A stretch of 27,446 nucleotides of DNA from Ectothiorhodospiraceae bacterium (GCA_050117435.1 JASFMS010000001.1:1-27446); one strand, 5' to 3'; counted from the stretch's first letter, positions 369-22,865 are shown. The notes: a model not told the origin generated them from the letters alone. Numbers and translations: made by a program.

Positions 369-1859
369 TCAGTGGTTGGCACCGCCACTGGCGTCCTTGA
401 GGTGATCGAGGACCCCGTCCAGGTTGAACGATGCCGGTTTCTGGCGCGGCGGAAACTGCCGGAACGACTCGATCTGGTCCGCCACAAGCCCCTGCATGCC
501 GTATATCAGATAAGCGTGGGAGATCAGCCAGTCCCAGTAGGTGTTCGAGTTCTCGTCCGCGCGTTCGAAGGGGTCGCGGCGCAGATTGAACATCTTGGGC
601 AGGCGCAGCGGTACGAAGGGCTCCGCCCAGCACTGCATCGTTTTCGCCCGCTGCTCCATCAGCACGACCTTCCAGTCGTTGTGGCGGATCGCGAGAATGT
701 CGCCGTCGTCGCTTATGTAGAAGAACGACTGGCGCGGGCTCTCGCTCGTCTCGCCGCTGAAATACGGCAGCATGTTGAAGCCGTCGATATGGACTTTGAA
801 GGTCTTGTCACCAGCCTTGTGGCCGGCCAGCAGCTTCTCGGTGATATCCGTTTCACCGGCTGCCGCCAGCAACGTCGGCAGCCAGTCCTGATGCGAAACG
901 ATCCCGTTCAGGACGGTTCCGTCAGGGAAGTGGCCCGGCCAGCGAACGAATGCCGGAACGCGCCAGCCGCCTTCCCAGTTGGTGTTCTTCTCGGCCCGGA
1001 ACGGCGTGATGCCCGCATCCGGCCAGCTGTTGTAATGCGGGCCGTTGTCCGTGGAGTACATGACGATGGTGTCGTCGGTGATGCCCAGCTCGTCGAGCTT
1101 GTCCAGCATCTGGCCGATATGCTCGTCGTGGGCGACCATCATGTCGTTGTAGAAGCCCTGCCCGCTCTTGCCGGCATGCTTGTCCGGGCAATGGGTGCGG
1201 AAATGCATTCCCGTCGTGTTGTACCAGAGGAAGAACGGCTGGCCGGAATTGTGTGCCTGCTCGATGAACCGCAGCGCCTTCTCCGTCACCTCGTCGTCGA
1301 TCGTCTCCATCCGCTTGCGGGTGAGAGGGCCGGTATCTTCCACGGTCTGCCCGCCGTTGCCGTCGGCACGGCAGTGCAGCACGCCGCGGGGGCCATAGCG
1401 CTTCTTGAATTCGGGGTCCTTCGGGTAATCCGGGTCTTCCGGCTCTTCTTCGGCGTTCAGGTGATAGAGATTGCCGAAGAACTCGTCGAAGCCGTGCATG
1501 GTCGGCAGGAACTCGTCCTTGTCGCCCAGGTGGTTCTTGCCGAACTGGCCGGTGGCATACCCGTGGGGCTTCAGCAGCTCCGCGATGGTCGGGTCCTGGT
1601 CGGGCATGCCGATGTCGGCGCCGGGAACGCCGACCTTGGTCAGGCCGGTTCGCACGGGATTCTGACCGGTGATGAAGGCGGCACGGCCTGCCGTGCAGCT
1701 CTGCTGGGCGTAGTAGTCGGTGAACGCGACGCCCTCGTTCGCCACCCGATCGATATTCGGGGTCCGGTAGCCCATCTGGCCGCGATTGTTATAGCTGATA
1801 TTCCACCAGCCGATATCGTCGCCCCAGAGAATCAGAATGTTGGGTTTCCTGTCGGCCAT
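369..1859 (-). CDS. Arylsulfatase / sulfatase family S1 (Cys-type, formylglycine-dependent), no signal peptide
   Basis: KPNILILWGDDIG N-terminal metal motif; SCTAGRAAFITG (CxAxR formylglycine signature, Cys55); GKNHLG; STDNG; GGWRVP. GGAGAG SD upstream. Confidence 0.95.
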   Translation of the reverse strand: MADRKPNILILWGDDIGWWNISYNNRGQMGYRTPNIDRVANEGVAFTDYYAQQSCTAGRAAFITGQNPVRTGLTKVGVPGADIGMPDQDPTIAELLKPHGYATGQFGKNHLGDKDEFLPTMHGFDEFFGNLYHLNAEEEPEDPDYPKDPEFKKRYGPRGVLHCRADGNGGQTVEDTGPLTRKRMETIDDEVTEKALRFIEQAHNSGQPFFLWYNTTGMHFRTHCPDKHAGKSGQGFYNDMMVAHDEHIGQMLDKLDELGITDDTIVMYSTDNGPHYNSWPDAGITPFRAEKNTNWEGGWRVPAFVRWPGHFPDGTVLNGIVSHQDWLPTLLAAAGETDITEKLLAGHKAGDKTFKVHIDGFNMLPYFSGETSESPRQSFFYISDDGDILAIRHNDWKVVLMEQRAKTMQCWAEPFVPLRLPKMFNLRRDPFERADENSNTYWDWLISHAYLIYGMQGLVADQIESFRQFPPRQKPASFNLDGVLDHLKDASGGANH

Positions 1860-4362: not shown

Positions 4363-5016
4363 TCACCGGCGTAGCCGAGGCTCGACACCGGCAAAGGCGC
4401 AATGGTGGATCAGCTCAGCCGCCGAACGCACCGCCATCTTCGTCATGATACGGCCCCGGTGGACTTTCACGGTCTTCTCGGCTATCCCCAGTTCCGCGGC
4501 AATCTGTTTGTTCAGATAACCGCCGATGACGAACTCCATGACTTCCCGTTCCCGCACCGAGAGGCTCTCGATGCGCCGGCGCGTCTCCTTCTCCCGCTGC
4601 TGGCGCCGCGCCCGTTCGGACGACTCGTGCAGCGCGGTTTCCAGAGCGCGCAGCAATACGGCTTCGTCCACCGGCTTCTGCAGGAAATCCGAGGCGCCCG
4701 CTTTCAGGGCCCGGACGCTCTCTGGCACCTCTCCATGTCCGGTGAGAAAGACGGTCGTGAGTTCCGGACACCGTTCGGCCAGTCTTTCCTGCAGCACGAG
4801 TCCGCTACAACCGGGCAACTGGAGATCGATGAGGACACAACCGAAGGCGCCCGAATCAAGGTGCGCCAGGATCTCCTGCGCGCTCGGGTAGCTCGCCACC
4901 TGATAACCGGCGGTGCCGAGAAGGCGGGACAGACCTTTGCGTATGGTCGGATCATCGTCCACCACGAATACTGTAGGTTCGGGCTGAACGTCCGCTTTGT
5001 GAATCGTCGCATTCAT
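4363..5016 (-). CDS. FixJ/NodW-type response regulator (REC + LuxR-type HTH)
   Basis: VFVVDDD, CVLIDLQLPG, FLTGHG, FLQKP; HTH LSVREREV...LNKQIAAELGIAEKTVKVHRGRIMTKM. AGAGG SD before the ATG at 5016. Confidence 0.93.
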   Translation of the reverse strand: MNATIHKADVQPEPTVFVVDDDPTIRKGLSRLLGTAGYQVASYPSAQEILAHLDSGAFGCVLIDLQLPGCSGLVLQERLAERCPELTTVFLTGHGEVPESVRALKAGASDFLQKPVDEAVLLRALETALHESSERARRQQREKETRRRIESLSVREREVMEFVIGGYLNKQIAAELGIAEKTVKVHRGRIMTKMAVRSAAELIHHCAFAGVEPRLRR

Positions 5017-6805
5017 CCTCTGTACTCTCCCTGCTACAGGGCAGTGCAACGAAGAACGTCACCCCGGGTTCAGAGTCGTTGCGTTCGGCCCAGATGCGCC
5101 CGCCATGTTCTTCGACAATTGAGCGGCAAATCGCAAGGCCGATACCCATTCCCTCGGACTTGGTGGTATAGAAAGGCTTGAACAGTGACGCGAGGTCCGA
5201 ATCGCGCACGCCACTGCCGCTGTCGCGCACCGAAATCTGCACGGTTTTCCGATCACGGCAGGCAACGCTTATGCGTATCCGACCGTGCACGTCCATGGCC
5301 TGCTCCATGGCCTCCATCGAATTCACCAGCAGGTTCAGCACCACCTGTTGGATCTGCGCCACGTTCACGACGGCATAACAGCCCGTTTCGATGTCGCGTT
5401 GGCACTCGATTCCCCGGGTGACGAATTCGCTGCGCATCATCTTCAATACATCGGCAACGCATTGCCCGACGTCGGTCCGCTCACGCTCCGATTCCCTGCG
5501 ATGAAGCATTCCCCGCAGTCCGCTGATGACGGCGCCCGCCCGTTTGTCATCACGCGCAATGTCTTCAAGGATTTCGCGGATTTCGCCGAGGTCCGGTGGA
5601 TCCCGGTCGAGCAGTCGAACGCCGGCCTGAGCGTTGCTGAGGATGGCGGCCAGCGGCTGCATCAGTTCGTGGGCAATCGACGTGCTTATGGTATTCGTGC
5701 GGGTCACCCGCTCCGCGTGCCACAACTGCCGGCGCAGGTCCCTGGCCTCACTTTCCGCGGCGAGCCTGGCAGTGATGTCGGTGGTCACCTGACCCAATGC
5801 CCAGATGGTGCCGTCGGTGTCGACGATCGGGAAACGCAGGGAACTCCATACCCTGTCGCCACCGTCGAAGACGTCCTCGGTCTCCACTGCTTCCCCGGTC
5901 TGGACCACGCGCTGATCGCTGCGCTGTATCGTATCGGCTTCTTCCGGAAACAGCTCCCGGTCGGTCTTTCCGAGCACATCGGCGAGGGACATAGAGTAGT
6001 GATTCTCGAACCACCTATTCACGAACAGGTACCGTCCGTGCCGATCCTTCAGTGATACGAGACCCGGGACATTATCCATTACCGCCTTCATCCGTTTGCG
6101 GCTCTCTCGCCGATCCCGTGCCAACGCTCTGCTCATCAGCACTACCAGGGGCAACAGACCCAGTTCGGATGCCGACACCAGATTCACGTCAGCGAACTCG
6201 ACCATTGCCTCCAACGCCACAGCCCCGCCGAATAGTGCCATGGCAACCCCGATCTCGACGGCGTCCCTTTTTGTCCCCCGGCGATACTGGTGGACAACGG
6301 TGTAAGCAGCGTAGACGAAAACAAGAGCGAGGCCCCACCAGGCAAGCGCAAACCAGGGGCTCATCGCCGTGTTTCCGAAGTCGAGAATGCGTTCTCCCCA
6401 GGGAAGCACCCGGTAGCTCACTGCGGGCGGGTGGACGAAGCGGATACCGTAGGGCAGCAGCAGGTCTGCAAGGAGCAGCAGCGCGAACAGCCCACTCAGC
6501 AGCGTGGGGGTAATGCGGGATCGCAAACCCGCATACGCACGCAGGAACCACGGCAGGAGCATGAGCGTGACCATGGCGAACGACAGGTCCAGGCGGTGCA
6601 ACGCCACCAACTCCCCCGGCGTTTCGGCCTGAAACGTGTAGGACTTTGCCACCACATACAGACCGGTCGCCAGGCAAAGAGCCGCGAACAAGGCGAACCG
6701 CCAGTCCGTCGGCCGTTTCAGCGCCAGGACGCCGTGGTGGACGCATGCATACAGGCAGACGCCCGCCATGACCTGAAGACCTGTCAGGAAATACCCGCTT
6801 TCCAA
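4952..6805 (-). CDS. Membrane sensor histidine kinase (multi-TM N-terminus, PAS, HisKA, HATPase; FixL/NodV-like kinase core)
   Basis: About 6-7 hydrophobic helices; PAS VSLKDRHGRYLFVNR; H-box SIAHELMQPL; N-box QQVVLNLLVNSMEAM; G1 VRDSGSG; F FKPFYTTK; G2 GMGIGLAICRSIVEEHGG. TTG start uncertain (alternative ATG at 6769). Confidence 0.92.
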   Translation of the reverse strand: MESGYFLTGLQVMAGVCLYACVHHGVLALKRPTDWRFALFAALCLATGLYVVAKSYTFQAETPGELVALHRLDLSFAMVTLMLLPWFLRAYAGLRSRITPTLLSGLFALLLLADLLLPYGIRFVHPPAVSYRVLPWGERILDFGNTAMSPWFALAWWGLALVFVYAAYTVVHQYRRGTKRDAVEIGVAMALFGGAVALEAMVEFADVNLVSASELGLLPLVVLMSRALARDRRESRKRMKAVMDNVPGLVSLKDRHGRYLFVNRWFENHYSMSLADVLGKTDRELFPEEADTIQRSDQRVVQTGEAVETEDVFDGGDRVWSSLRFPIVDTDGTIWALGQVTTDITARLAAESEARDLRRQLWHAERVTRTNTISTSIAHELMQPLAAILSNAQAGVRLLDRDPPDLGEIREILEDIARDDKRAGAVISGLRGMLHRRESERERTDVGQCVADVLKMMRSEFVTRGIECQRDIETGCYAVVNVAQIQQVVLNLLVNSMEAMEQAMDVHGRIRISVACRDRKTVQISVRDSGSGVRDSDLASLFKPFYTTKSEGMGIGLAICRSIVEEHGGRIWAERNDSEPGVTFFVALPCSRESTEDECDDSQSGRSARTYSIRGGR

Positions 6806-6995: not shown

Positions 6996-7089
6996 CCAAA
7001 CAGGAAGCCGGCGCCGCCGGGAATCATCCCGACACCCGGACTTTTCAAAACAGGGATTGGTATCCGTATCACGCCAGGGAACTAGCGGC

Positions 7090-8748
7090 ATGAACCACAG
7101 CAGGTCAGTCCGGCCCCCGCCATCGCAGTTTGTCGTCTGGGCACTGGCGCTCCTGCTTTCCCTCTGCGCGCCTGGGACGACGGTTGCCGCCGACGACGCG
7201 AAACCCGACGTCGCCCCCGCCAGATCGCCAAGCACAGCGCCCGTGATCATCGACGGTACCACTCTGTTTCGAGTGCGCGGCGTTACCGCGTACCCTGCGG
7301 CCGCGCGCGCCAGGGCCATTGAAGAACGAATCCGCACTGTCGCGGCAGACCCTGACATCGATACCTCGGCGATCAGGGTGACTGAGTCGGCGGAAGGTTT
7401 ACGCGTAGAGGCCGGCAGCCAGGCCCTATTGCTCGTTGTCGACGCCGATGCCGCCCTGGAACAGGTGGACCGAAAGACGCTGGCGGCAGTGTATGCGGGG
7501 CGCATCGGGGCGGCCATTGCCTCCTATCGCCGGGAGCGCACAACCGAGTATCTCCTGAGAGCCGGCTTCTCTGCGGTGGCCGCGACGCTGGCGTTGGCAG
7601 CCTTCCTATGGCTCGGCAGTCGCGGGCTCCGCCGCCTTGACGCCGCGCTCGACACACGCCTGAAAGTGAAGCTGAGGGGCGTCGAGAAACAGGCCTTCCG
7701 CGTTATCACCGCCTCGGATATGTGGAGGGCTCTCCACGGTGCCCGCCGGCTTCTCTGGTCGCTGGTAATTTTCGTCGCGGTGGTCCTCTGCCTGTATTTC
7801 GTGCTGCAGCAGTTCCCCTGGACACGTCTGGTCGCCTACCGCCTTATCGAGCTCCTGTTGAATCCCGTCCATACCATGGGTCGACAACTGTTGGCCGTGG
7901 CGCCGGATCTCGTCTTTCTGGCCCTGATCTTCGTCGTGACCCGCTTTGCCCTGAAAACCATTCGCGTATTCTTCGCGGGAATGGCCCGGGGCGTGATCAC
8001 GCTCGGCTCTTTCGAACAGGAGTGGGCCTGGCCGACCTATCGCCTGCTACGCGTACTCGTGATCATTTTTGCGCTGGTGCTGGCCTACCCGTATATCCCC
8101 GGCTCGCAGACCGAAGCCTTCAAGGGCATTTCCATCCTTTTGGGCATCATCGTCTCTATTGGCTCCACGTCTTTCATCAGCAACGTGATCGCCGGCTACT
8201 CACTGATCTACCGCCGGGCCTTCCGCATCGGTGACCGCGTGCGGATCGAGGGATACGTGGGTGATGTCGTGGAATCACGGCTGCTGGTCACGCATCTGCG
8301 CACCCCCAAGAACGAGGAAGTCGTAATCCCCAACTCACTGATTCTCACCAGCAATGTTGTGAACTACAGCGCCACCGCCCGCGAAGGGCGTCTGATACTG
8401 CATACGACGGTGGGGATCGGTTACGAGACGCCCTGGCGGCAGGTCGAGGCCATGCTCCTGCAGGCCGCCTCGCGCACGAGTGGTGCGGTGACCGAGCCAC
8501 GGCCGTTCGTGCTGCAGCAGAAGCTCGGTGACTTCTGTGTCGTGTACGAACTGAATGTCTGCTGTGACAACGCCCACGCCATGGACCGTCTCTACAACCA
8601 CCTGCACCAGAACATACTGGACGTGTTCAACGAATACGGCGTGCAGATCATGACGCCCGCCTACGAGGCGGACCCCGAGCAACCCAAGATCGTGCCCGGT
8701 GACCAGTGGTATGCGCCGCCGGCAAAACCGTCGACGCCGGCGGAGTGA
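7090..8748 (+). CDS. MscS-family mechanosensitive channel with an N-terminal exported domain
   Basis: Signal-like N-terminus (ending TTVA-A), several TM helices, ISNVIAGYSLIYRRAFRIGDRVRIEGYVGDV, TPKNEEVVIPNS, VGIGYETPWRQVE. Start placed at the ATG at 7090. Confidence 0.9.
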   Translation: MNHSRSVRPPPSQFVVWALALLLSLCAPGTTVAADDAKPDVAPARSPSTAPVIIDGTTLFRVRGVTAYPAAARARAIEERIRTVAADPDIDTSAIRVTESAEGLRVEAGSQALLLVVDADAALEQVDRKTLAAVYAGRIGAAIASYRRERTTEYLLRAGFSAVAATLALAAFLWLGSRGLRRLDAALDTRLKVKLRGVEKQAFRVITASDMWRALHGARRLLWSLVIFVAVVLCLYFVLQQFPWTRLVAYRLIELLLNPVHTMGRQLLAVAPDLVFLALIFVVTRFALKTIRVFFAGMARGVITLGSFEQEWAWPTYRLLRVLVIIFALVLAYPYIPGSQTEAFKGISILLGIIVSIGSTSFISNVIAGYSLIYRRAFRIGDRVRIEGYVGDVVESRLLVTHLRTPKNEEVVIPNSLILTSNVVNYSATAREGRLILHTTVGIGYETPWRQVEAMLLQAASRTSGAVTEPRPFVLQQKLGDFCVVYELNVCCDNAHAMDRLYNHLHQNILDVFNEYGVQIMTPAYEADPEQPKIVPGDQWYAPPAKPSTPAE

Positions 8749-8769
8749 CCCGCTCCCCCACGCCGCCGG

Positions 8770-9747
8770 TCAGAAGGAAGCCTTCCCGTTCCCTGTGGGG
8801 GCTGTCTCCTCAACCAGGCGCAACAATTCCTGCCCCTCGCGTTCCAGGTAGGGCTCATTCACCCGGCGGGCCAGCGTCACGGCGGAGCGAATCCATTCAT
8901 CGGCCCGTAGCGCCTCCGGCGACTGCCGCGGTCCCGCAAGCGCGCTTCGGGCGGCCCGCAAGTAGAGGTCCGCGGCACGCTGCAGAGTTCCCGCGGCCCG
9001 GGCATTCTCCGCTGCCAGTGCCAGATTCCTCGCCACCCCGTCGGTGTCGCCGCTGTCGCGGCGCCCTTCCACCGCGCGCAGGAAGCGCTCACTCGCTCGC
9101 GCGTGATCCCCTCGCAGAGCGAGCAGCCGCGCCGTCAACTCATCGGTGTCCGCCGCCGTCACGGGGTCCTCGGGCGGCGGAAGTGCCGCTATCAGCTTCT
9201 GCAGCGCGTCCGCGTCCTGCCGGTCCGCCGCAATGAACGCGGCCAGAACCGTGGCCCGAAGCGCTACCGGCTGAGCATCGGCTCGATCGCCGCGCACCCC
9301 TCCCAACCCCCGTGCGAGTTCAAGAGCCCGATCGACATCGCCGCTTTGGTAGAGAGCCCAGGCCTGCACCAACCGGACGTCGTCCCGCTCCGGCAGACCG
9401 CGGCGTTGCAGCCGTGCATTCGTGCTCTCGGCAAGATCGACCGCCCTGCGGTAGCGGTAGCGACGATACTCGGTAAGCGCCAGCTCATAGCCGACCGCGG
9501 CCTGGGCCGTGGCGTCGTCGGAGGCATACGCCCGCGACAGCGCGCGCTGGTAAAGCAGTACCGCCTGGTCGAAACGCTTTCGCTGGAATGCGTCCCTCGC
9601 CAACGCTACCGCGTCGGCGATTCGAGGATCCCGTTGCAGTGGGTCGGCCGGCGGCGGGACGCTGGCGCAGGCGACGATCCCCGTCAGAATCAACGCCACC
9701 CAGGGCAAGCGGCCCGGAAGCTTCCAGCGGGGCCCGGTCAGCGCCAT
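8770..9747 (-). CDS. TPR-like alpha-helical lipoprotein
   Basis: Lipobox IVA-C27 followed by A,S (no +2 Asp, so outer-membrane sorting predicted). Ala/Arg-rich helical repeats with TPR-like patterns (AVLLYQRAL, AADLYLRAA). Overlaps the mlaD-like stop by 10 bp. Confidence 0.75.
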   Translation of the reverse strand: MALTGPRWKLPGRLPWVALILTGIVACASVPPPADPLQRDPRIADAVALARDAFQRKRFDQAVLLYQRALSRAYASDDATAQAAVGYELALTEYRRYRYRRAVDLAESTNARLQRRGLPERDDVRLVQAWALYQSGDVDRALELARGLGGVRGDRADAQPVALRATVLAAFIAADRQDADALQKLIAALPPPEDPVTAADTDELTARLLALRGDHARASERFLRAVEGRRDSGDTDGVARNLALAAENARAAGTLQRAADLYLRAARSALAGPRQSPEALRADEWIRSAVTLARRVNEPYLEREGQELLRLVEETAPTGNGKASF

Positions 9748-10703
9748 AGCCTGTTGGCTCCCGGGCGCTCACCCAGCTCCGGACCGGCATCCCCGCCGAT
9801 CAGCCAGTTGTTCTGCAGCGTCTCCAGCAGGCGTTCCAGCTCCCTGAGGGTCACCTGCGTCTGGGTCACCAGCTGGGGCAGTTCATCGCCCACGCCGACG
9901 CTCTGCCGGGTCAATTTACGCACATCCGCGGCAGACGACCGCAGGTCCAGCAGTGCGGAATTCACCGATGAAAGCATCGCCGGCAAGCCGTCCCTGTCAT
10001 CCGCGAGTGCGCTGCTGAGACGCTCGATCTCCGCCGACGAGCGGTTCAGGCTCTGCAACAGCTCGGCCGCCTCGGCGGTGCGTCGCCGGGCCTCTTCCGT
10101 GGTTGCCGCCAGTTCCCGATATAATCGATCGTCGGTCATCAGTTGCCCGGCCGTTCCCCTTCCCTGCTGCATGCCGTCCGCGAGCGTGGCGGTCACCGCC
10201 AGGAGCCGGTTGGTCTGATCGATTACGGGGAAGACCCGGGCGCGCAAATCGTCGATGAGTTCGCCGACGTTATCGGTGGTGCCGCGCTCGGAGCGCGCGC
10301 TCAACACAGCGTAGTCCCAATCCAGCGGTGCGCCTTTTCCCTGTGCGATTTCAAGATAGGCGGCTCCGGCGATACCGAACTGGCGCTTGATCAGCGCAAC
10401 GGAGTCCCGGCGCAGGAAATCGGCCATGCCGTCGTCGATGTCCACAACCGCGTGGAAGTGCTGATCGGGACTAACCACTATCTGTCTCACCCGTCCCGCG
10501 GGCGTTCCCAGAATTTCTACTCCGGCGCCCCGTGAGAGCCCGGAAACACCACTTTCCGGGAGCAGCACGTGCAGCTTCTTGGCCGGAAAGACAAGATCCT
10601 GAACCAGGTTGCTCTGAAGCAGCGTGACCACTACCAGCGCCACCGCCACGAGAACCAGAAGACCGGCACGCCGGCTACCGCGGATACCAGGGGACCCATT
10701 CAT
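9738..10703 (-). CDS. MlaD/MCE-domain protein with a long C-terminal coiled coil
   Basis: N-terminal TM anchor; MCE motifs SGLSRGAGVEILGTPAGRV and FGIAGAAYLEIAQG; heptad-rich C-terminal half. Confidence 0.9.
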   Translation of the reverse strand: MNGSPGIRGSRRAGLLVLVAVALVVVTLLQSNLVQDLVFPAKKLHVLLPESGVSGLSRGAGVEILGTPAGRVRQIVVSPDQHFHAVVDIDDGMADFLRRDSVALIKRQFGIAGAAYLEIAQGKGAPLDWDYAVLSARSERGTTDNVGELIDDLRARVFPVIDQTNRLLAVTATLADGMQQGRGTAGQLMTDDRLYRELAATTEEARRRTAEAAELLQSLNRSSAEIERLSSALADDRDGLPAMLSSVNSALLDLRSSAADVRKLTRQSVGVGDELPQLVTQTQVTLRELERLLETLQNNWLIGGDAGPELGERPGANRLWR

Positions 10704-10742
10704 CGCATTCTGCCTCCCACGACCCCGCCGGTCGTACGGGTT

Positions 10743-11384
10743 TTAGGGAAACGCTGGACAGCTCCCGCGTGGATTCAGCACGAGAACCGCGGCGCCGGCG
10801 GCTCTGGCCCGAAACGCCAGATCGAATACTGCCGGGCGGAGACCCGCTGGCAGGCCGCGAAGCAGTACCAGCGCCGGCGCCCCCAGGAAACAGCTCACGA
10901 ATCCGGCACGCCGCAGATCCTCGGCGTCAGTATCCGCGGGCCTCGAGGCGGGAAGCCCGGGCATCCCGAGTGACCGCGCCAGCATCACCGCCTCCCGCCT
11001 GATCGCATCGACGGGCCTGCCCGTGTGGAAGCGTTCGGCCAGGATGACGTTATCCGCGACTGTAATGCCGGGAAGCCACTCTTCGGGTCCGAGTGGGTAC
11101 CCGATTCGGCCGCGCAGCGCGTCGGCGAATTCCCGCTTCAGGGCTTGCCAGTCGTATCCCAGAAAGCGAACTCGTCCGGATTGGGGCGGACGCAGCCCGT
11201 CCAGGGTCTCCACCAACGGCTCCTCCAGGCCAGCACTCGGAACGTCCAGGAACCGCATTTGGCCCGCTGCCAGCTCGATGTCCGCCGACCAGCCCTCGGC
11301 GCAGCGGCCCCCCCATGAGGGCCGCATGGCCTCCAGCCGCAGAACGGGTTCGGCTGTGGGCCGCGGGCGTGCCGGCGCACTCAC
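10743..11384 (-). CDS. Degenerate ABC-ATPase-fold protein (MlaF-like position; Walker A, signature and Walker B absent)
   Basis: ABC scaffold retained: GLRPPQSGRVRFLG, LRGRIGY, LPGITVADNVIL. GTG at 11384 overlaps the mlaE-like TGA (GTGA). Catalytic motifs are replaced (see findings). Confidence 0.8.
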   Translation of the reverse strand: MSAPARPRPTAEPVLRLEAMRPSWGGRCAEGWSADIELAAGQMRFLDVPSAGLEEPLVETLDGLRPPQSGRVRFLGYDWQALKREFADALRGRIGYPLGPEEWLPGITVADNVILAERFHTGRPVDAIRREAVMLARSLGMPGLPASRPADTDAEDLRRAGFVSCFLGAPALVLLRGLPAGLRPAVFDLAFRARAAGAAVLVLNPRGSCPAFP

Positions 11385-12205
11385 AGGGCGATCACCATGC
11401 TTATCAGTCCGTTCACGACGAGCACACCCAGTAGAGTCCGAAAGAATCCCCGCGACAGCACCTCGCCGCGCTCGTGGCCCGCTCCGACCGAGCGCGCAGC
11501 CGTGGTCAACACCACCACGGCGACGACGCCCCCAAGAACCAGGGCCTTCGCCAACGCCCAATGGGGCCCGCTGTCAGCCAGCGTTTTCAGTATGCCGACA
11601 AGGGCGCCGCGGGTTCCGAGCTCGGACAGTCCGAGCAACTCCGCGGCGAGGAACCCCGAGCTGATCGACGCCGCCACGAACACGGCGGTGAGACACGCGC
11701 TCGCCACCGCGAATGCCGCGAACATGGGAACCGCCAAATAGACCAGCGCGTCCACGCCCCTTCGTTCGAGAGCACGCAGCGCCCCGGAAGCCCAGAGTTT
11801 GTGAGCACTGCCCAGCCACGTCAGGCCGGAGCGCCCGATCAGGACGACGGCCACGGCAATGGGCGCGAATTGCTGCAGAACCAGGGCAAGCAGAATCCGG
11901 CGAACGGAATCCGGTTGTCCCAGTTCCTTGAGCCAGAATATGGCCTGGGAGACAAGCACCAGCCCGGTCAGTACCGCGATGATCAGCACGGCGCGGAGGG
12001 CCCCCACACCGTCGCGTTCGAGAGTGTCCAGGAATTGCTCGCGCACCAGGCGGCGCCAGGTGGAGGGACGGATCGCACTCCCGATTATCGTGATGCCCAG
12101 GGCGACGGCATCCACGATCCACAGGCCGCCCCGGTCGCTGCGGCGCATCCCCGGCCCCGCTTGCCGCCGTGAAACCTGCTGCGAAAGCGCTGATGGCGCC
12201 TTCAT
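11381..12205 (-). CDS. MlaE-like ABC permease (divergent)
   Basis: About 5-6 TM helices. QQFAPIAVAVVLIGRSG matches MlaE ELGPxxxxxxxxGRxG; ALERRGVDALVYLAVP matches DALxxMGxDPxxYLVxP. Confidence 0.85.
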   Translation of the reverse strand: MKAPSALSQQVSRRQAGPGMRRSDRGGLWIVDAVALGITIIGSAIRPSTWRRLVREQFLDTLERDGVGALRAVLIIAVLTGLVLVSQAIFWLKELGQPDSVRRILLALVLQQFAPIAVAVVLIGRSGLTWLGSAHKLWASGALRALERRGVDALVYLAVPMFAAFAVASACLTAVFVAASISSGFLAAELLGLSELGTRGALVGILKTLADSGPHWALAKALVLGGVVAVVVLTTAARSVGAGHERGEVLSRGFFRTLLGVLVVNGLISMVIAL

Positions 12206-12208
12206 CGT

Positions 12209-14602
12209 TCAGATCTCGCCCTGCAGTAGGTACGTTTGCACTTCGCCGACGCCCTCCTCGTAATACAGCCCCCTGAACCGAATCGCGAAGTCCTCTCGAA
12301 GCGCATCGCTAGCGGACTCGCCGAGTTGGATGCCGCCGTCGGGGGCGCTGTTCGCCAGCGTCTCCGCCCGATTCAGCGACTCGCCCCAGAGATTGCCGGC
12401 CGGAGCGCCGGTCCCGGACTCGACGCATTGGAGCGGACCAACTGCTATCCCCGCCCGACAGGCCGCACTCAGATCGTGCCGCGCGAACACGGCCTCGCAC
12501 TCGGCGCGTGTGGTCAGTGCAGCGCGCCCGATGGCGCGCACGGCGTCCGCAAGCGGGCGGTCCAGGCCGTCCGCCAGAACGCCGTGCTCCCCGAGCAATC
12601 GGACAAGGGGGATTCCAAGTTCTGAAGCGACGGCTCGCACTCGCTCCGCGAACTCCACCCGCGCGGGCATCCACGCGGCCGCAGCCCCCGAGAGCGCTGG
12701 GCTGCGCACTTCGGAAATCCTGAACCAGAGCACCGCCGCGTTCGGATAAACCGTCGTACCAGAAGCCCCTGTGTCGCCCCAGCGCCGCCGGACTCTTTCC
12801 ACCAGCGGCGGGGCTGGCGCCTCGGTCGCGGACCGCACGCCGCGCCGCCGTTTCGTCGCCGGCGGCGCATTGTTCGCCGCCCCCGCGGCGGTTTCGCCGG
12901 CCTCCATGGCTCCGACATCGCGCCTGTCGCCGCTCAATGCGGGCCGTATAATCCCGGCCGCGTAGCCGGCAACGCCAATCACGTCGCTCTCGCTCAAGGG
13001 TGGCGCGGCGGTCGCGTCCTCCACCCATAACGCGCCCATCAACCGTCGCTTCCGCAGGACGGGCACCGCGGCCAGGGAGCCGGCCCCGACGGCCTGAAGA
13101 TAATTCCGGTACAGCGCCTGCGTGCGGCTGTCGGACTCAGCCTCGGGGACGTAAAGTGGCTCGCCGCTTTCCAGGGCCTCGAACAGATGTGGATATGCGG
13201 ACCGCCCCAATACCGCGGCATCCGTGTGCCCGCCGTGTTCGCGGTCGTAACAGTCCATACACACGAGGGCCTCATCCACGTCCCTGTAGGACCACACTGA
13301 TACGCGCCGGGCCGCGACCGCCTGAGCCACGCTCTCCGTGACCCGGCGCACGGTGCCCCTGCTCAGCTGTGACTCGGTGGAGGCGATGCCGGAGAGCGCC
13401 GACAGTTCCGCACCGAGTCGGTTCATCGCCGCACGCCGATAAAGCAGGTCGCGCTCGCGCCGCTGGACGGATACCCGAAGGGCGACAAGCAAGCCCACGA
13501 GGGGGAGTGACAACAGAACGAGCAGCCCCGAAGCCAGTATCACGTTGCGGCTGTTGCGATCCAGAAAACTCGTGAAGCTCGCCTCCGGCGCAGAAATGAT
13601 CAGCCACAACGGGCGGTTGAGAACCCTCTCCAGGGAAGACGCGGCCACGACGTAACGCTCCGACCCGAGGCCGACGACACGGTGGATATCCCGTTGCACG
13701 CGTACGCGGTCGAATATGCCCCGAAGAACGGGATCCGCCAGGTCCTCGATCCGTGCCGGCCTCAGTCCGTCGCCGTCCCGCACCACCGCATCGGCGGGAT
13801 TCGGCGTCGCGAACACCTGACCGTCGGACTCCATGATTACGGCCTTGCCGTTCCGGCCGATTTCCAGATCGTTAAGGAATCTGCTCAGCTGGGCCAGCTC
13901 GATATCCACACCGACCACATACGCGACTTCTCCGCCCGGAACCCGGACCGCCAGGGCCGCTGTAATCCCCGGCTGCTGACTGGAGAAGAAGACGTAGAGG
14001 TTGCTCCAGAAGACATCCTTCGACTCGACCGCCCCCTGGAACCAGGGGCGCGAAGTGGCCTGAAAGCGGTCGCTCGGATCCGATTCCGTGCCCAGGACGC
14101 CGCCACCCGGGCCCCTGCGAATTACGGTCACCGTCCGCTGCCCACCGTCAACTGCTATGCGTTTGGTATCCAGCCAGCCCTTGTCGTTCCGACGCACCAT
14201 CGTGAAGCGACCGTCCGGATCCGCCACATAGAAGGCAGCCAGGGACGCGTTGCTCCGCATCATGGCGAGTGCGAAACGTTCGAATACGGCGTCCACCTGA
14301 GACCAGTCCAGACGCTGCCGGCCGGCCAGCTCACCCGTAAGGCGAACAGCCTGCTCCGCCGGGCGCATGAAAACCTCGACCTCGCTGCGCACACGTTGAT
14401 CCAGCGAGCGCACCACGTCCTCCGTGAGCCCCAGCACATCCCGGCGGTTGGCGTCACGGTCATAGAATGTGAGCCCGAGGAATCCGCCCAGCACCAGGAA
14501 CAGCACGACAACGGGCGCCGCAACCATCAGGAGATCCCGAACGCGGCCCCTCGAGGCATACCCCGGCTCCGAATCGGGACGGATATCGGGTTTGTCGGTC
14601 AC
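12209..14602 (-). CDS. Membrane sensor: TM-dCache-TM-GAF-class III nucleotidyl cyclase-like domain (probably catalytically inactive)
   Basis: Cache motifs TSRPWFQGAV, WSNLYVFFSSQQPGIT, VVGVDIELAQLSRFL; GAF ARRVSVW...SLAAVPV...GALWVED; cyclase fold CRAGIAVGP, LWGESLN, GGIQLGES, GEVQTYLL. GTG start with GAGG SD. Confidence 0.85.
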   Translation of the reverse strand: MTDKPDIRPDSEPGYASRGRVRDLLMVAAPVVVLFLVLGGFLGLTFYDRDANRRDVLGLTEDVVRSLDQRVRSEVEVFMRPAEQAVRLTGELAGRQRLDWSQVDAVFERFALAMMRSNASLAAFYVADPDGRFTMVRRNDKGWLDTKRIAVDGGQRTVTVIRRGPGGGVLGTESDPSDRFQATSRPWFQGAVESKDVFWSNLYVFFSSQQPGITAALAVRVPGGEVAYVVGVDIELAQLSRFLNDLEIGRNGKAVIMESDGQVFATPNPADAVVRDGDGLRPARIEDLADPVLRGIFDRVRVQRDIHRVVGLGSERYVVAASSLERVLNRPLWLIISAPEASFTSFLDRNSRNVILASGLLVLLSLPLVGLLVALRVSVQRRERDLLYRRAAMNRLGAELSALSGIASTESQLSRGTVRRVTESVAQAVAARRVSVWSYRDVDEALVCMDCYDREHGGHTDAAVLGRSAYPHLFEALESGEPLYVPEAESDSRTQALYRNYLQAVGAGSLAAVPVLRKRRLMGALWVEDATAAPPLSESDVIGVAGYAAGIIRPALSGDRRDVGAMEAGETAAGAANNAPPATKRRRGVRSATEAPAPPLVERVRRRWGDTGASGTTVYPNAAVLWFRISEVRSPALSGAAAAWMPARVEFAERVRAVASELGIPLVRLLGEHGVLADGLDRPLADAVRAIGRAALTTRAECEAVFARHDLSAACRAGIAVGPLQCVESGTGAPAGNLWGESLNRAETLANSAPDGGIQLGESASDALREDFAIRFRGLYYEEGVGEVQTYLLQGEI

Positions 14603-14719
14603 GACGAATCCTCACGTCACGAAGCGCGTCGATCCAACGCCCCGTGACCGCAGCGCTTTTCGACCCCGTTGCGAACCTCCGTCCGAAACGAAGCCATGCC
14701 ACCGGGCGCCGGCCCGCCC

Positions 14720-15310
14720 CTACTCGGCCTCAACCGGGCGCCCAACACGTGCCTGACGGGCGAGATAGACGATGGCCAGTCCCTCACTGACAAGCTGCAC
14801 TCCAAGCAGCAAGCCGAGTAGCCAGATGGCCGACGTGGGCAACAGCGACAGCAGCAGGATCGACAGGGCGACACCAAGGACCCCGCTTGCCAGCAACCAG
14901 TGCCAGTTGGGGAAGGGGCGGATCGTCAGGGCGAACACGACCTTGGACATCCCCTCCACCATGAGGAAGACGATCAGTAGCAATGCCAGCGTGGCGACAC
15001 CCTCTCGCGGGTGGAGAAGAAACAGCCAGCCGATCATTACGGACAGAACCACGGAAATGAGCTGAATCCAGAAATGGGGCACGTTTCGGGCGCCCATCAG
15101 ACTCACGCCCTGGGCCAGACCGCTGATGATCAGCACCCACCCCATGAGGCTGGCCACGGCCAGCGAGGAAATCACCGGATAGATCAGGGCCAGAACACCA
15201 CCGATCACCATCAGCCCACCCTGAATCAGAAACCATACGGAGTGCCGCCTGACGGTGTCCCGCATGGCGTCGCGCATTGCCTCGGCAGCGGCGTCAAGGG
15301 TCATGCTCAT
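14720..15310 (-). CDS. HdeD/DUF308 family membrane protein (paralogue 1)
   Basis: Six hydrophobic helices with WFLIQGGLMVIGG and WHWLLASGVLGV repeats. GAGGAGG SD. Confidence 0.85.
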   Translation of the reverse strand: MSMTLDAAAEAMRDAMRDTVRRHSVWFLIQGGLMVIGGVLALIYPVISSLAVASLMGWVLIISGLAQGVSLMGARNVPHFWIQLISVVLSVMIGWLFLLHPREGVATLALLLIVFLMVEGMSKVVFALTIRPFPNWHWLLASGVLGVALSILLLSLLPTSAIWLLGLLLGVQLVSEGLAIVYLARQARVGRPVEAE

Positions 15311-15345
15311 GGGTCTCCATCCTCCTCGGGTGGCGGCCTGGTGAT

Positions 15346-15375
15346 GCTCGGTAGCCGAGGGCTCGGTAGCCGAGG
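15346..15375. repeat. Exact 2x15-bp tandem repeat; each unit is a mini-hairpin
   Basis: GCTCGGTAGCCGAGG at 15346-15360 and 15361-15375. Each contains CTCGG-TAG-CCGAG. Confidence 0.9.
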
Positions 15376-15382
15376 GCGTTCG

Positions 15383-15928
15383 TCAGGGCGACATCCGAAC
15401 ATCGTCACCAACAACGAGATTCGTGGACCAACCCGCCGAAGCGCCACCCTTTTCCTGAAAGTAAAGCAGGTAGACGTTGGTGTTTGCCGGTCCGCTGAAC
15501 GCGGTGGCACGGCCCGTCTGCATGGTCTTCTCGGCGGCGGTCCAGGCGGGTCCGAGACAGTCGGCGACCACTGGCACGTACTCTTCGTAAAGGCGCCTCG
15601 CCGTGGATTCGTCGGCGTGTTTCCAGGTGCAGACGTAGTTCGTCCTGTCAGCGGCCCACTCCCAGATCAGGCATTCTCCGGAGGCGAACACCGGACGCGC
15701 CTCCCAGAGAGTTGCCATGCGGGTACTGGTCTTGTGTTCCCTGATGTCGCGGAAACCGACCGATTCCTGGTCGATGACCAGACGCAGGTTGTCGCAGGTC
15801 CTGCCGGACCGGGAGTTCGACGACCCGGCCGTATCCGGGCCGTCGGGCATGACCGAGGTGGCGCACCCTGCCAGCATCGCGGCCGCAAGGAGGGATGTGA
15901 CTTGCGCAATCCCCTGCACCGAGCTCAT
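15383..15928 (-). CDS. Hypothetical lipoprotein with four additional Cys residues
   Basis: GGGGAG SD before the ATG at 15928. Lipobox LAG-C22. Mature part has TCDNL, GECLI, YVCTW, ADCLG (possible disulfides). Confidence 0.75.
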   Translation of the reverse strand: MSSVQGIAQVTSLLAAAMLAGCATSVMPDGPDTAGSSNSRSGRTCDNLRLVIDQESVGFRDIREHKTSTRMATLWEARPVFASGECLIWEWAADRTNYVCTWKHADESTARRLYEEYVPVVADCLGPAWTAAEKTMQTGRATAFSGPANTNVYLLYFQEKGGASAGWSTNLVVGDDVRMSP

Positions 15929-15969
15929 GAATCTCCCCGCTCCCTGGAGGCGTGACTCCACATCCTGAC

Positions 15970-16043
15970 GTTATACGCCCGTATCCGGGGGACGTGGATG
16001 GGACCAAAGTCCAATGCCCTCTCCCAACACACCGCGCTAGTCT
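15970..16043. promoter_or_regulatory. Palindromic operator site 4 (15998-16015) with -10-like hexamers on both sides (bidirectional promoter)
   Basis: ATGGGAC-CAAA-GTCCAAT. TAGTCT at 16038-16043 (+) and TATAAC at 15975-15970 (-), each 22 bp from the site. Confidence 0.75.
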
Positions 16044-16117
16044 CGAACTCAGTGATACCGCCGGCCGTCCCGTCGCGCGGCCGGCCATTTCAGCCCCTAA
16101 CTTCAGGAGTAGCGCAT

Positions 16118-16711
16118 ATGACCACGACCGCGGCGCCGGCGGGATTCGAAGACCGCCCCCTGCTGAAAGGCCTGATCAGGAACTGGTGGGCGTTGCTGCT
16201 CCGCGGAATCGCCGCGGTCGTCTTCGGCATTCTCGCCCTGCTATGGCCGGGGCTGACCCTGCTGACCCTGACGTTCCTCTGGGGCGCTTATGTGCTGATC
16301 GATGGTGTCTTCGCGCTCTGGGGGGCCATTGTCGGCAAGGTTGAGGGCGTCGGCGCACGATGGTGGCTTGGGGTCGTGGGAGCGCTCGGCATTCTCGTCG
16401 GCCTCATGGCGCTGGCCGCGCCCGCCTATACCGCAGGCGTGCTGCTTACGGTCATCGCCGCCTGGGCGATTGTCATAGGCGTCCTGCAGATACTCGGGGC
16501 CGTGCGTCTCCGCAAGGAGATCGAGGGTGAGTGGTTCCTGATCGTGAGTGGAATCGTGTCCGTCCTCTTCGGCCTGGCAGTTGTGTTCCAGCCGGTGGCC
16601 GGCGCGCTCGCGGTTGTCTGGATGATCAGCCTTTTCGCGATCCTGTTCGGTGTCGCCCTGATCGCACTGGCACTGAAGCTGCGGAGCGCGGCAACACGTT
16701 TTCTGCGCTGA
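16118..16711 (+). CDS. HdeD/DUF308 family membrane protein (paralogue 2)
   Basis: RNWWALLLRGIAAVVFGILALLWPG and IEGEWFLIVSGIVSVLFG. CAGGAG SD before the ATG at 16118. Confidence 0.9.
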   Translation: MTTTAAPAGFEDRPLLKGLIRNWWALLLRGIAAVVFGILALLWPGLTLLTLTFLWGAYVLIDGVFALWGAIVGKVEGVGARWWLGVVGALGILVGLMALAAPAYTAGVLLTVIAAWAIVIGVLQILGAVRLRKEIEGEWFLIVSGIVSVLFGLAVVFQPVAGALAVVWMISLFAILFGVALIALALKLRSAATRFLR

Positions 16712-20417: not shown

Positions 20418-20502
20418 TTCCTACTCCGGAAGCGGGATGCTCCCACTCACGCCCGGTTACGGTGGGTACGGATGGCGGCGAAAGCGCCTACCGTCGCGGA
20501 AT

Positions 20503-20655
20503 CTACAACAGCAGGGTAATCGCGAGCATCCACTCCGGCAGTGGCCGGCCGGTAATTCCATAACCGATCATGACCGCAGTGAAGAGTGCGCCGGCGCTGA
20601 ACGCCGCCAGGCCGATACGCTGCATGCCGGTCAGCTTCTGACTATCGCTGGACAT
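20503..20655 (-). CDS. Putative 50-aa small membrane protein
   Basis: MSSDSQKLTGMQRIGLAAFSAGALFTAVMIGYGITGRPLPEWMLAITLLL. GC3-rich codons, fills an otherwise empty gap, weak SD. Alternative start at 20625. Confidence 0.5.
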   Translation of the reverse strand: MSSDSQKLTGMQRIGLAAFSAGALFTAVMIGYGITGRPLPEWMLAITLLL

Positions 20656-20690
20656 CGTCGTGACTGCTCGTATTCCCGGAAGGCCGCCTA

Positions 20691-20718
20691 TTGTCGCAGG
20701 CTTGGAGCGCGCTATAAA
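20691..20718 (+). promoter_or_regulatory. Possible sigma70 promoter for the OmpR-type gene
   Basis: TTGTCG (20691-20696), 16-bp spacer, TATAAA (20713-20718). GTG start at 20749. Confidence 0.4.
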
Positions 20719-20748
20719 TACTCTGGTACAAACCAGTGGATAGCGCCC

Positions 20749-21462
20749 GTGAACGAAACTTCCCCCCGCGTCCTGGTCGTCGACGACGAAGCGCCCGTGC
20801 GCGAGATGATTGCCGAATACCTCACCCGTTACGGCTTCACCGTGGACGCGGCCGCTGACGGTGGGCAGATGCGCGAGCGATTGTCGGCCGCCCGGCCGGA
20901 CGTGGTGCTGCTGGACATCGCCATGCCGGGCGAGGACGGACTGACTCTGGCCCGCTACCTGCGGGAACACTGCGACGTCGGCATCATAATGGTCACGGCG
21001 TCGGGCGAGGTGGTGGAACGGATCGTCGGGCTCGAGGTCGGCGCCGATGACTACATCGCCAAACCCTTCGACCCGCGGGAACTCCTGGCTCGCGTGCGCA
21101 GCGTACTTCGCCGGCTGAAGGCGACAGCGGCCGCCCCGGCGGAACAGGACACGAACCGGAGGGTACGCGTCGGAAACTGCACGCTGGACCTGGACGCCCG
21201 CCGCCTGTTGGGGGAGGACGGCGAGGACATTCCCATTACCGCCATGGAGTTCGATCTGTTGCAGATCTTCGTGTCCCGCCCGAACCGGGTCCTCAGCCGG
21301 GACGACATCCTGAACCTGACGCAGAACCGCGACTGGGACCCTTTCGACCGCAGCGTCGACATCCGAATCGCGCGCCTGAGAAAGAAGATCGAGCTGGACC
21401 CCGCGAAACCCAGCCTGATCCGGACTATCCGCGGGGCCGGGTACGTTTTCGTGCCGGCATAG
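20749..21462 (+). CDS. OmpR-family response regulator (REC + winged helix)
   Basis: VLVVDDE, VVLLDIAMPGEDG, GLEVGADDYIAKPFDPRELLARVR, FDRSVDIRIARLRKKIE, IRTIRGAGYVF. GTG start at 20749. Confidence 0.94.
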   Translation: MNETSPRVLVVDDEAPVREMIAEYLTRYGFTVDAAADGGQMRERLSAARPDVVLLDIAMPGEDGLTLARYLREHCDVGIIMVTASGEVVERIVGLEVGADDYIAKPFDPRELLARVRSVLRRLKATAAAPAEQDTNRRVRVGNCTLDLDARRLLGEDGEDIPITAMEFDLLQIFVSRPNRVLSRDDILNLTQNRDWDPFDRSVDIRIARLRKKIELDPAKPSLIRTIRGAGYVFVPA

Positions 21463-22376: not shown

Positions 22377-22606
22377 CGCTCCTCCCTCCTCGTCGCGAAG
22401 ATCCCGCGGCCCATGAAAAGCACGTCCTCGCGCCGGATACCCATGTCCCGCAACTGACGGTCTTCCATCTCCATGAGGATGCGCCGGTCCCTTCTGTTCC
22501 TGGCGCCGCGCGCCACGGCATTCAGGACGGAGCGGAGCCGGTCTGCCGCCGCTCTCGCAAAACCGGAGCCGTAGCCGGCGGTCAATGCTGTGTCGTTTGC
22601 TTTCAT
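22373..22606 (-). CDS. DUF1127 (YjiS-like) small protein
   Basis: RNRRDRRILMEMEDRQLRDMGIRREDV matches the DUF1127 RxxLxxLxDxxLxDIGLxRxD motif. GGAGG SD before the ATG at 22606. ATGA overlap with the hydrolase. Confidence 0.88.
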   Translation of the reverse strand: MKANDTALTAGYGSGFARAAADRLRSVLNAVARGARNRRDRRILMEMEDRQLRDMGIRREDVLFMGRGIFATRREER

Positions 22607-22865
22607 CGGAATTCCTCCATCGAACCCGTCCGCTTGGCGGGCACGTACATGTGGTTGTCTATCCAAGCTTCAGGCTACGGAAGGGAGGTATCCGGGGGAT
22701 TTCGCGGTGCGGTGCGGTTGTCTACCCCTTGTTTCCATGAACGCCAACGGTCCGCAGATTGCTTCGACACCGTTTCATTTGTTTCCGGTACGTATCCAGG
22801 ACAGCGCGCGGGGCGCTCCATGCAACATAATTCCCTTGGGACAACCCACCCCGCGGAGGCCCGCC

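Follow-up and report, generated by a model that had tools for sequence, protein, structure and literature searches.

A widespread MCE operon family pairing an ABC fold without an ATP site with a pseudo-cyclase sensor: a candidate signal-gated conduit across the bacterial envelope

The DNA analysed here (hereafter the window) is a 27,446-nucleotide stretch from an Ectothiorhodospiraceae bacterium (GCA_050117435.1, JASFMS010000001.1:1-27446), and makes up one whole 27-kb contig of a metagenome-assembled genome that is 68% complete. Five intact open reading frames (ORFs), all on the minus strand between positions 8770 and 14602 (5.8 kb), encode a sensor that ends in a cyclase-homology domain (CHD), an MlaE-type permease, a protein with the fold of an ATP-binding cassette (ABC) nucleotide-binding domain (NBD), an MCE protein and a TPR-like lipoprotein. 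This operon belongs to a widespread and selectively maintained MCE family. We incline, with modest confidence, to the view that the family forms a conduit across the envelope that works without ATP and is opened or closed by sensory input via a pseudo-cyclase adaptor. A sequence-only reading of the same DNA had proposed a repurposed MCE complex serving either as a passive conduit or as an envelope-state sensor; that proposal was supported as far as it could be tested, and its functional part is what we infer below.

The genes and the domains on which the argument depends are as follows.

12209..14602, minus strand: sensor of 797 amino acids (aa), with a first transmembrane helix (TM1), periplasmic dCache_1 domain, second transmembrane helix (TM2), GAF domain and CHD; GTG start codon and GAGGA ribosome-binding site
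13640..14284, minus strand: dCache_1 periplasmic domain, sensor residues 107-321 (Pfam, 55 bits)
12980..13354, minus strand: GAF domain, sensor residues 417-541 (Pfam GAF 39 bits, GAF_2 30.5 bits)
12218..12646, minus strand: class III CHD, catalytically degenerate (pseudo-cyclase) as judged from the Pfam Guanylate_cyc match (32 bits) and an alignment with Rv1625c-type cyclases
11381..12205, minus strand: MlaE-type permease, 274 aa (Pfam MlaE, 70.6 bits)
10743..11384, minus strand: pseudo-NBD (pNBD), 213 aa, an ABC NBD fold without ATP-binding or hydrolysis motifs (AlphaFold2 model and motif inspection)
9738..10703, minus strand: MCE/MlaD protein, 321 aa, with an N-terminal transmembrane helix, one MCE domain and a helical, needle-like tail of ~170 aa (Pfam MlaD, 33 bits)
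8770..9747, minus strand: lipoprotein, 325 aa, with lipobox cysteine Cys27 and seven TPR-like hairpins (lipobox pattern and model)

A gap of 3 nucleotides separates the sensor gene from that of MlaE, whose stop codon overlaps the GTG start codon of the pNBD gene in the sequence GTGA; a 39-nucleotide spacer with a GGGAGG ribosome-binding site precedes the MCE gene, which in turn overlaps the lipoprotein gene by 10 nucleotides. ORF prediction, Pfam and structural models confirmed the gene order, junctions and domain types previously read from the DNA, with the dCache_1, GAF, Guanylate_cyc, MlaE and MlaD matches all exceeding the curated Pfam cut-offs, and the view that the genes are intact and coupled was upheld by complete ORFs, overlapping or adjacent starts and the presence of ribosome-binding sites. 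The GC content of third codon positions (GC3) is 0.75-0.79 in all five genes, equal to that of neighbouring genes. A scan of positions 8600-15500 for sigma-70-like promoters and terminators yielded nothing above background.

The ABC-like subunit is central to the argument. No Pfam match to the pNBD was obtained, and its NCBIfam matches (DevA, FtsE, MlaF) are weak, at 12-25 bits against cut-offs of 265-441. An AlphaFold2 model built on a 19-sequence alignment has a predicted local distance difference test score (pLDDT) of 90.5 and, when searched with Foldseek, resembles the ABC NBDs of FtsE, MlaF, MacB and LolD (TM-score 0.72-0.77, probability 1.0) and of the Mce1 ATPase (0.7-0.77 for all five together); as modelled, the protein is predicted to comprise the RecA-like core and helical subdomain that characterise the NBD fold. 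In the window protein, VPSAGLEEPLVE occupies the place of Walker A and departs from the P-loop pattern GxxGxGK[ST]. The Q-loop Gln, LSGGQ signature, Walker B Asp-Glu and H-loop His are also absent: TDAEDLRRA stands where the signature would be, VLLRG is found at Walker B (LLExP in the family) and LNP at the H-loop position (W.T in the family). A word-indexed search returned 33 homologues at 35-50% identity, most of which have no match to PF00005. The automatic labels that homologues carry, 'phospholipid transport system ATP-binding protein' or 'P-loop NTPase family protein', include the term 'ATP-binding protein', which is misleading for this family. When 1.84 billion cluster representatives were searched with a profile, at least 510 clusters, defined at 50% identity, fell into the family at E<=1e-30, and the best 150 of them scored 221-290 bits. 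Neither Walker A nor the signature motif was found in place in any of 179 family members inspected; two regular-expression matches to Walker A or LSGG were rejected as true motifs, both being located in N-terminal extensions outside the NBD. The family has conserved motifs of its own, namely RGRIGRVF, HHTRR, GLPGLP, DLRRA, LLExP and VLW.T. From its motifs, the pNBD is predicted to be incapable of binding ATP canonically.

The CHD of the window sensor is most similar to Rv1625c-type class III cyclases (E 7e-10), and scores 32.3 bits with Pfam Guanylate_cyc (PF00211; cut-off 21.9), the match covering profile positions 40-183 only. Aligned with the Rv1625c type, the first metal-binding Asp (Asp1) is replaced by Arg and the second by Glu, the purine-site Lys by Arg, the adenine-specifying Asp by Asn and the transition-state Arg by Thr, leaving the transition-state Asn as the residue retained. 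The same sites were read in about 50 CHDs linked to loci of the family, none of which has the first metal Asp (Arg in 22, Gln in 9, His in 6, others elsewhere) and one of which has the transition-state Arg; the transition-state Asn is mostly Arg, the purine-site Lys is retained in 41 and its partner Asp is Asn in 44. Variants in which the CHD is joined to a REC or GAF domain score as high as 130-177 bits in Pfam, yet their catalytic motifs are replaced (FAEL and VAEI for FxDI; VGN, VGH and MGV for xGD; VEVALEL for VNxAxR). The notion that the REC-CHD proteins of Verrucomicrobiota might be active cyclases, which their Pfam scores had raised, was rejected on account of these replacements. An unrelated CHASE2 cyclase located 1.3 kb from one locus served as a control; it retains FSDLQGFS, GDA and NLASR, indicating that the alignment reads the CHD sites correctly. 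With Asp1 absent and most of the transition-state Asn and Arg residues exchanged, the linked CHDs are not expected to act as cyclases. The absence of catalytic residues from both the ATPase-like and the cyclase-like gene, as first noted from the sequence, was therefore borne out, in the former case for the window copy and 179 family members, and in the latter for the window, where only the transition-state Asn is kept, and for the ~50 linked CHDs.

The distribution of the family was examined with 71 loci from GTDB species representatives, found by the DNA pattern RGRIGRVF-20aa-HHT and scored with hidden Markov models of the orthologues. The gene order MlaE-pNBD-MCE-TPR is present in 71/71. Metagenomic or genomic contexts agree with this order (7/7). 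Six contigs that carry family members all have MlaE-pNBD-MCE, followed in five by a TPR-like or unannotated gene of 290-340 aa, and three of the six, among them the complete Sediminicoccus sp. KRV36 genome, resemble the window in having a dCache-GAF-Guanylate_cyc gene directly upstream. The upstream gene could be assessed wherever upstream DNA was at hand, which was the case for 45 loci outside the PVC group (Verrucomicrobiota, Lentisphaerota, Kiritimatiellia). All 45 have a CHD sensor gene directly upstream, i.e. 20/20 loci in Desulfobacterota, 22/22 in Alphaproteobacteria, 2/2 in Acidobacteriota and the single locus in Gammaproteobacteria. The sensor is of the dCache-GAF-CHD type in 44 (complete, or cut by the edge of the locus) and GAF-CHD in one: in a Desulfobacterium genome (L097:3959-5146), a soluble GAF-pseudo-CHD protein replaces the sensor and is preceded by a TPR-methyltransferase gene. 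Three verrucomicrobial loci have a REC-CHD gene after the TPR gene. The orthologues of the window sensor, at 30-32% identity, share its domain architecture. Judged from these arrangements, the common denominator is a pseudo-cyclase domain with interchangeable inputs, adjoining a core that lacks an ATP site. The system is present in cultured isolates, since Plastoroseomonas hellenica LMG 31523 and Dongia soli D78 are among the 45 sensor-headed loci and Neoroseomonas soli LMG 31231, which is outside the 45, carries the core; with Sediminicoccus sp. KRV36, these isolates make bench study feasible.

Two side observations concern individual loci. A sulfatase gene and a gene for an MscS-type mechanosensitive channel flank the window operon (369-1859, minus strand; 7057-8748, plus strand), and MscS and sulfatase genes are also located just upstream of the sensor gene in the nearest relative of the window copy (L013:1-2003), so that synteny between these two loci reaches beyond the five genes. 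Separately, a locus binned as Verrucomicrobiia (L095) contains a proteobacterial-type operon with an upstream CHD gene and is near-identical on the tree to the alphaproteobacterial locus L106, reflecting either mis-binning or recent transfer.

Selection on the family was estimated as the ratio of non-synonymous to synonymous substitution rates (dN/dS) by the Nei-Gojobori method, applied to 12 pairs of closely related family loci (dS 0.05-2.1). Because some loci occur in two pairs, independence is incomplete, and the estimates apply to pairs inside the family, the window's own lineage, whose nearest homologue is 41% identical, being saturated in dS. Median dN/dS was 0.18 for the pNBD (maximum 0.26) and 0.22 for the pseudo-CHD (maximum 0.39), as compared with 0.26 for MlaE, 0.16 for the MCE protein, 0.22 for the TPR protein, 0.20 for the dCache domain and 0.24 for the GAF domain. 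Both dead domains are under purifying selection that is as strong as that on the membrane parts. The expectation that the degeneracy would prove to be maintained by selection was accordingly verified, with ratios far from 1, and the five-gene synteny sought at the outset turned out to be conserved (core 71/71; upstream CHD sensor 45/45 assessable loci outside PVC). Three outcomes had been named in advance as contrary to the reading, namely homologues with intact motifs, loss of synteny and a dN/dS of about 1, and none of them occurred at the family level. Since the motif-less family is widespread, its synteny conserved and its dN/dS low, the operon family is not recently decayed.

The other components were characterised as follows. 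The permease matches MlaE (PF02405) over profile positions 2-211 of 212, with a cut-off of 22.5 bits, and scores below the NCBIfam equivalog cut-offs, which places it outside the orthologues of E. coli MlaE. In the window it has diverged in the cytoplasmic segment, which reads GRSG...DP (canonical: GRAG..E..M..TEQ...DP). The MCE/MlaD domain (PF02470) scores 33.4 bits against a cut-off of 25.1, and residues 14-30 form the transmembrane anchor; the protein also matches TIGR00996 (Mtu_fam_mce) over residues 16-297, and its homologues show faint Helical_needle matches. These features point to a needle-type MCE protein comparable to Mce1, PqiB and Brucella MpcD. The lipoprotein has a signal peptide with the lipobox IVAC, and a lipobox-type Cys is present by the strict pattern in 44/54 orthologues and as a variant in most of the others; the protein is probably anchored in the outer membrane. 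Modelled at pLDDT 90.5, it forms a solenoid in which seven TPR-like hairpins follow one another, and searches of Pfam, the PDB and the AlphaFold database (AFDB) returned generic TPR-type matches only, with none to PqiC or MlaA. A 564-aa 'Mce/MlaD domain-containing protein' in AFDB cluster A0A349GWE6 has a TPR region that resembles the lipoprotein (residues 60-314; TM-score 0.61, 23% identity), and this natural fusion suggests, by analogy, that the MCE and TPR proteins touch.

With regard to the signal, the closest solved relative of the periplasmic dCache domain is PctA (5ltx; E 4e-8). In a phmmer alignment, F180, R185, W187, F188, Y203 and D233 of the window protein align to PctA Y121, R126, W128, Y129, Y144 and D173, which make up the AA_motif defined for dCache_1AA amino-acid sensors (PMC10589655). 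By this alignment only, four of the six residues are identical, the equivalents of Y121 and Y129 being Phe in the window; the family consensus has Tyr at both, and the motif positions are conserved in 32 sensors. The dCache ligand is probably an amino acid, as far as the motif is a guide.

A separate, canonical set made up of MlaE (246 bits), MlaD (84 bits) and a fragment of MlaF with LSGGM is found on contig C250 of the same genome, which indicates that the operon is an extra system as opposed to the housekeeping Mla. Neither the operon nor the 27-kb window encodes a MlaB STAS protein, MlaC or MlaA. MlaFEDB of E. coli, A. baumannii and P. aeruginosa (PDB 6xbd, 7ch8, 6z5u) shares with the operon an MlaE-family permease, an adjacent NBD-fold subunit, a membrane-anchored MCE protein and a similar order of the permease, NBD and MCE genes. 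Unlike MlaFEDB, the operon has an NBD without an ATP site, a long helical tail on the MCE protein, a TPR-type lipoprotein in place of MlaA and a dCache-GAF-pseudo-cyclase gene at its head, and is devoid of MlaB, MlaC and MlaA. The closest characterised architecture is that of Brucella abortus Mpc (MpcEFDA), a chimeric Mla-Pqi system whose MpcF is described as an MlaF-homologous ABC ATPase, whose MpcE includes a STAS domain and whose MpcA resembles PqiC (PMC12436622). The two have in common a compact operon, an MlaE-like permease, an MlaF-like subunit and an outer-membrane lipoprotein encoded by the last gene, and the MCE coiled-coil needle of Mpc, which is predicted to span the periplasm, is similar to the MCE tail of the operon (PMC12436622); the dead NBD, the TPR-solenoid lipoprotein and the pseudo-cyclase sensor as regulator set the operon apart. 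PqiABC and LetAB set a precedent for trans-envelope MCE tunnels that function without an ABC ATPase, and the outer-membrane lipoprotein PqiC caps the PqiB needle (PMC12436622). However, their inner-membrane partners, PqiA and LetA, show no relationship to MlaE and lack a subunit of NBD fold; each MCE chain has three to seven MCE domains, and a linked sensor gene is absent. The mycobacterial Mce1-4 systems (PDB 8fed) resemble the operon in combining an MCE domain and helical needle with an MlaE-like YrbE, but employ six different MCE proteins and the active ATPase MceG, and lack a pseudo-NBD, cyclase-type sensor and TPR lipoprotein. Neither a pseudo-NBD nor a TPR lipoprotein nor a cyclase-type sensor occurs in Mpc, MlaFEDB, PqiABC, LetAB or Mce. 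On the sensory side, the CHD fold is the same as in Rv1625c/Cya-type class III cyclases (PDB 7yzi, 1yk9) and the degenerate halves of mammalian adenylyl cyclases; the dCache motif can be aligned with PctA-type dCache_1AA sensors (PMC10589655), whereas the output of the operon sensor is neither a chemoreceptor nor a kinase module. A search of the full-text literature, in a collection that excludes most subscription journals, found no published description of an MlaF without an ATP site or of an MCE-cyclase operon.

The regulated conduit might be built and operated as follows. An MlaE2-pNBD2 complex and an MCE hexamer with its helical needle would form an envelope-spanning path for lipids or other hydrophobic molecules, with the TPR lipoprotein capping or anchoring the needle, and the path would not be powered by ATP. 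In ABC transporters, the conformation adopted by the membrane domains follows from whether the NBD dimer opens or closes. The pNBD dimer may have retained this mechanical role, setting the conformation of MlaE, and the pseudo-CHD dimer, which is two-fold symmetric, could dock on it and drive or lock it in place of ATP, in a manner that can be likened to the docking of the STAS protein MlaB on MlaF. Binding of a ligand to the dCache domain (probably an amino acid) or the GAF domain, or the state of a REC domain, would then open or close the conduit. The specific idea contained in this scheme, that of an ABC-fold subunit free of chemistry that acts as a clutch, i.e. a purely mechanical link between a pseudo-cyclase dimer and an MlaE permease, is put forward tentatively and may well be incorrect. 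If it is true, the family would constitute a distinct mechanistic class of MCE system in which lipid flow is switched by signals (amino acids, REC phosphorylation) as opposed to being pumped by ATP, and would provide the first case of paired pseudo-enzymes, a pseudo-NBD and a pseudo-cyclase, being co-opted for the gating of a transporter. Mla is powered by ATP and the drive of Pqi and Let is not established; the energising and regulation of MCE systems is an open question, to which the present family adds a case where the fold of the ABC engine survives under purifying selection, stripped of its ATP-handling residues and tied to a second dead enzyme domain with sensory inputs. The family would offer a handle on the mechanical contribution of NBDs apart from hydrolysis, and on the signal-gating of lipid traffic between membranes.

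Several points weigh against the regulated conduit. At the level of the family, the 71 loci are a biased sample, as selection by a single conserved motif favours conservative members. Most PVC loci consist of the four-gene core with no CHD gene nearby, which means that the CHD partner is not obligatory. Moreover, the link between the CHD and the pNBD or MlaE is one that we infer from gene neighbourhood, and the proton-motive force or some other source may drive the path, as has been proposed for the ATPase-less PqiAB and LetAB. The remaining points concern the copy in the window, which has diverged further than any other family member. Of the columns that are at least 90% conserved in the family, it keeps 62% in MlaE and pNBD, as compared with 70-95% in members that were not picked by the search motif and 93-95% in L013; for its sensor the figure is 73%. 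The window pNBD is without ~25 C-terminal residues and four residues at the LLExP position, including the Glu, and single-nucleotide variants in the operon (two synonymous and two non-synonymous, from four sediment metagenomes in which contig data drop rare variants) are uninformative. Given its long branch and the lost pNBD C-terminus, this copy may have drifted in function.

The last points raise the alternative that the family is functional and the window copy a decaying or functionally released remnant. In a tree of concatenated MlaE, pNBD and MCE sequences, the terminal branch of the window copy measures 1.42 against a median of 0.18, and several conserved charged residues in the cytoplasmic segment of its MlaE are replaced. 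A frameshifted remnant of the absent pNBD C-terminus was sought and not found, and when 400 genomes sampled from the window's class were scanned with a profile, no family member came up, only ordinary ABC ATPases scoring at most 98 bits, compared with 229 for the window protein. Against decay, the five ORFs are intact, with coupled starts, a ribosome-binding site and GC3 like that of the neighbours; the pNBD and TPR proteins are modelled confidently, and the MCE protein retains 82% of its conserved columns. In addition, the window sequence recurs in several wetland and mangrove sediment metagenomes. Decay is considered improbable, and the window copy is regarded as functional but diverged, because its genes are intact and fold confidently.

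A second alternative, also judged unlikely, holds that the complex is a sensor of envelope state, in which a non-transporting MCE-TPR bridge reports on the outer membrane or periplasm and the pseudo-cyclase sensor and pNBD relay the report by protein contact. The death of both nucleotide-handling domains and the multi-domain sensor at the head of the operon would be in keeping with such a device, as would the proximity in the window of signalling genes (7TMR-DISM kinase, MscS, PAS hybrid kinase). However, the operon lacks an output domain, no partner gene is conserved beside it, and dN/dS values of 0.16-0.26 for MlaE and for the MCE domain with its helical tail are as for a working conduit. 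The regulated conduit is favoured over the sensor because the four-gene core, which is what most PVC loci possess, also occurs without any sensor; since the operon is devoid of an enzymatic output domain as well, the transport path appears to be its only plausible output.

That the path is still driven by ATP, by means of an active ATPase in trans, such as the canonical MlaF encoded in the same genome, or by non-canonical binding of nucleotide to the pNBD, where the wider family retains a Glu at the Walker-B-like LLExP position, is very doubtful, since the pNBD gene lies between the MlaE and MCE genes in 71/71 loci and so fills the NBD position, the window copy has lost the LLExP Glu, and a pNBD-MlaF heterodimer, with neither P-loop nor signature on the pNBD side, could not form a full composite site. 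The precedent for supply in trans is that one MceG serves several mycobacterial Mce systems.

The contig is rich in signalling functions, with a 7TMR-DISM histidine kinase at 4952-6805 (minus strand), an OmpR-type regulator at 20437-21462 (plus strand) and, at 22590-26474 (plus strand), a hybrid kinase of 1294 aa that combines a GAF domain with multiple PAS domains. Two DUF308 (HdeD-like) paralogues are located upstream of the operon (14720-15310, minus strand; 15998-16711, plus strand), with an unannotated ORF of 192 aa (15383-15961, minus strand) between them. The minus-strand DUF308 gene ends 117 nucleotides before the sensor start, making co-transcription possible, and a 15-nucleotide deletion at window position 15346, between this gene and the 192-aa ORF, was observed in one sediment run (X7).

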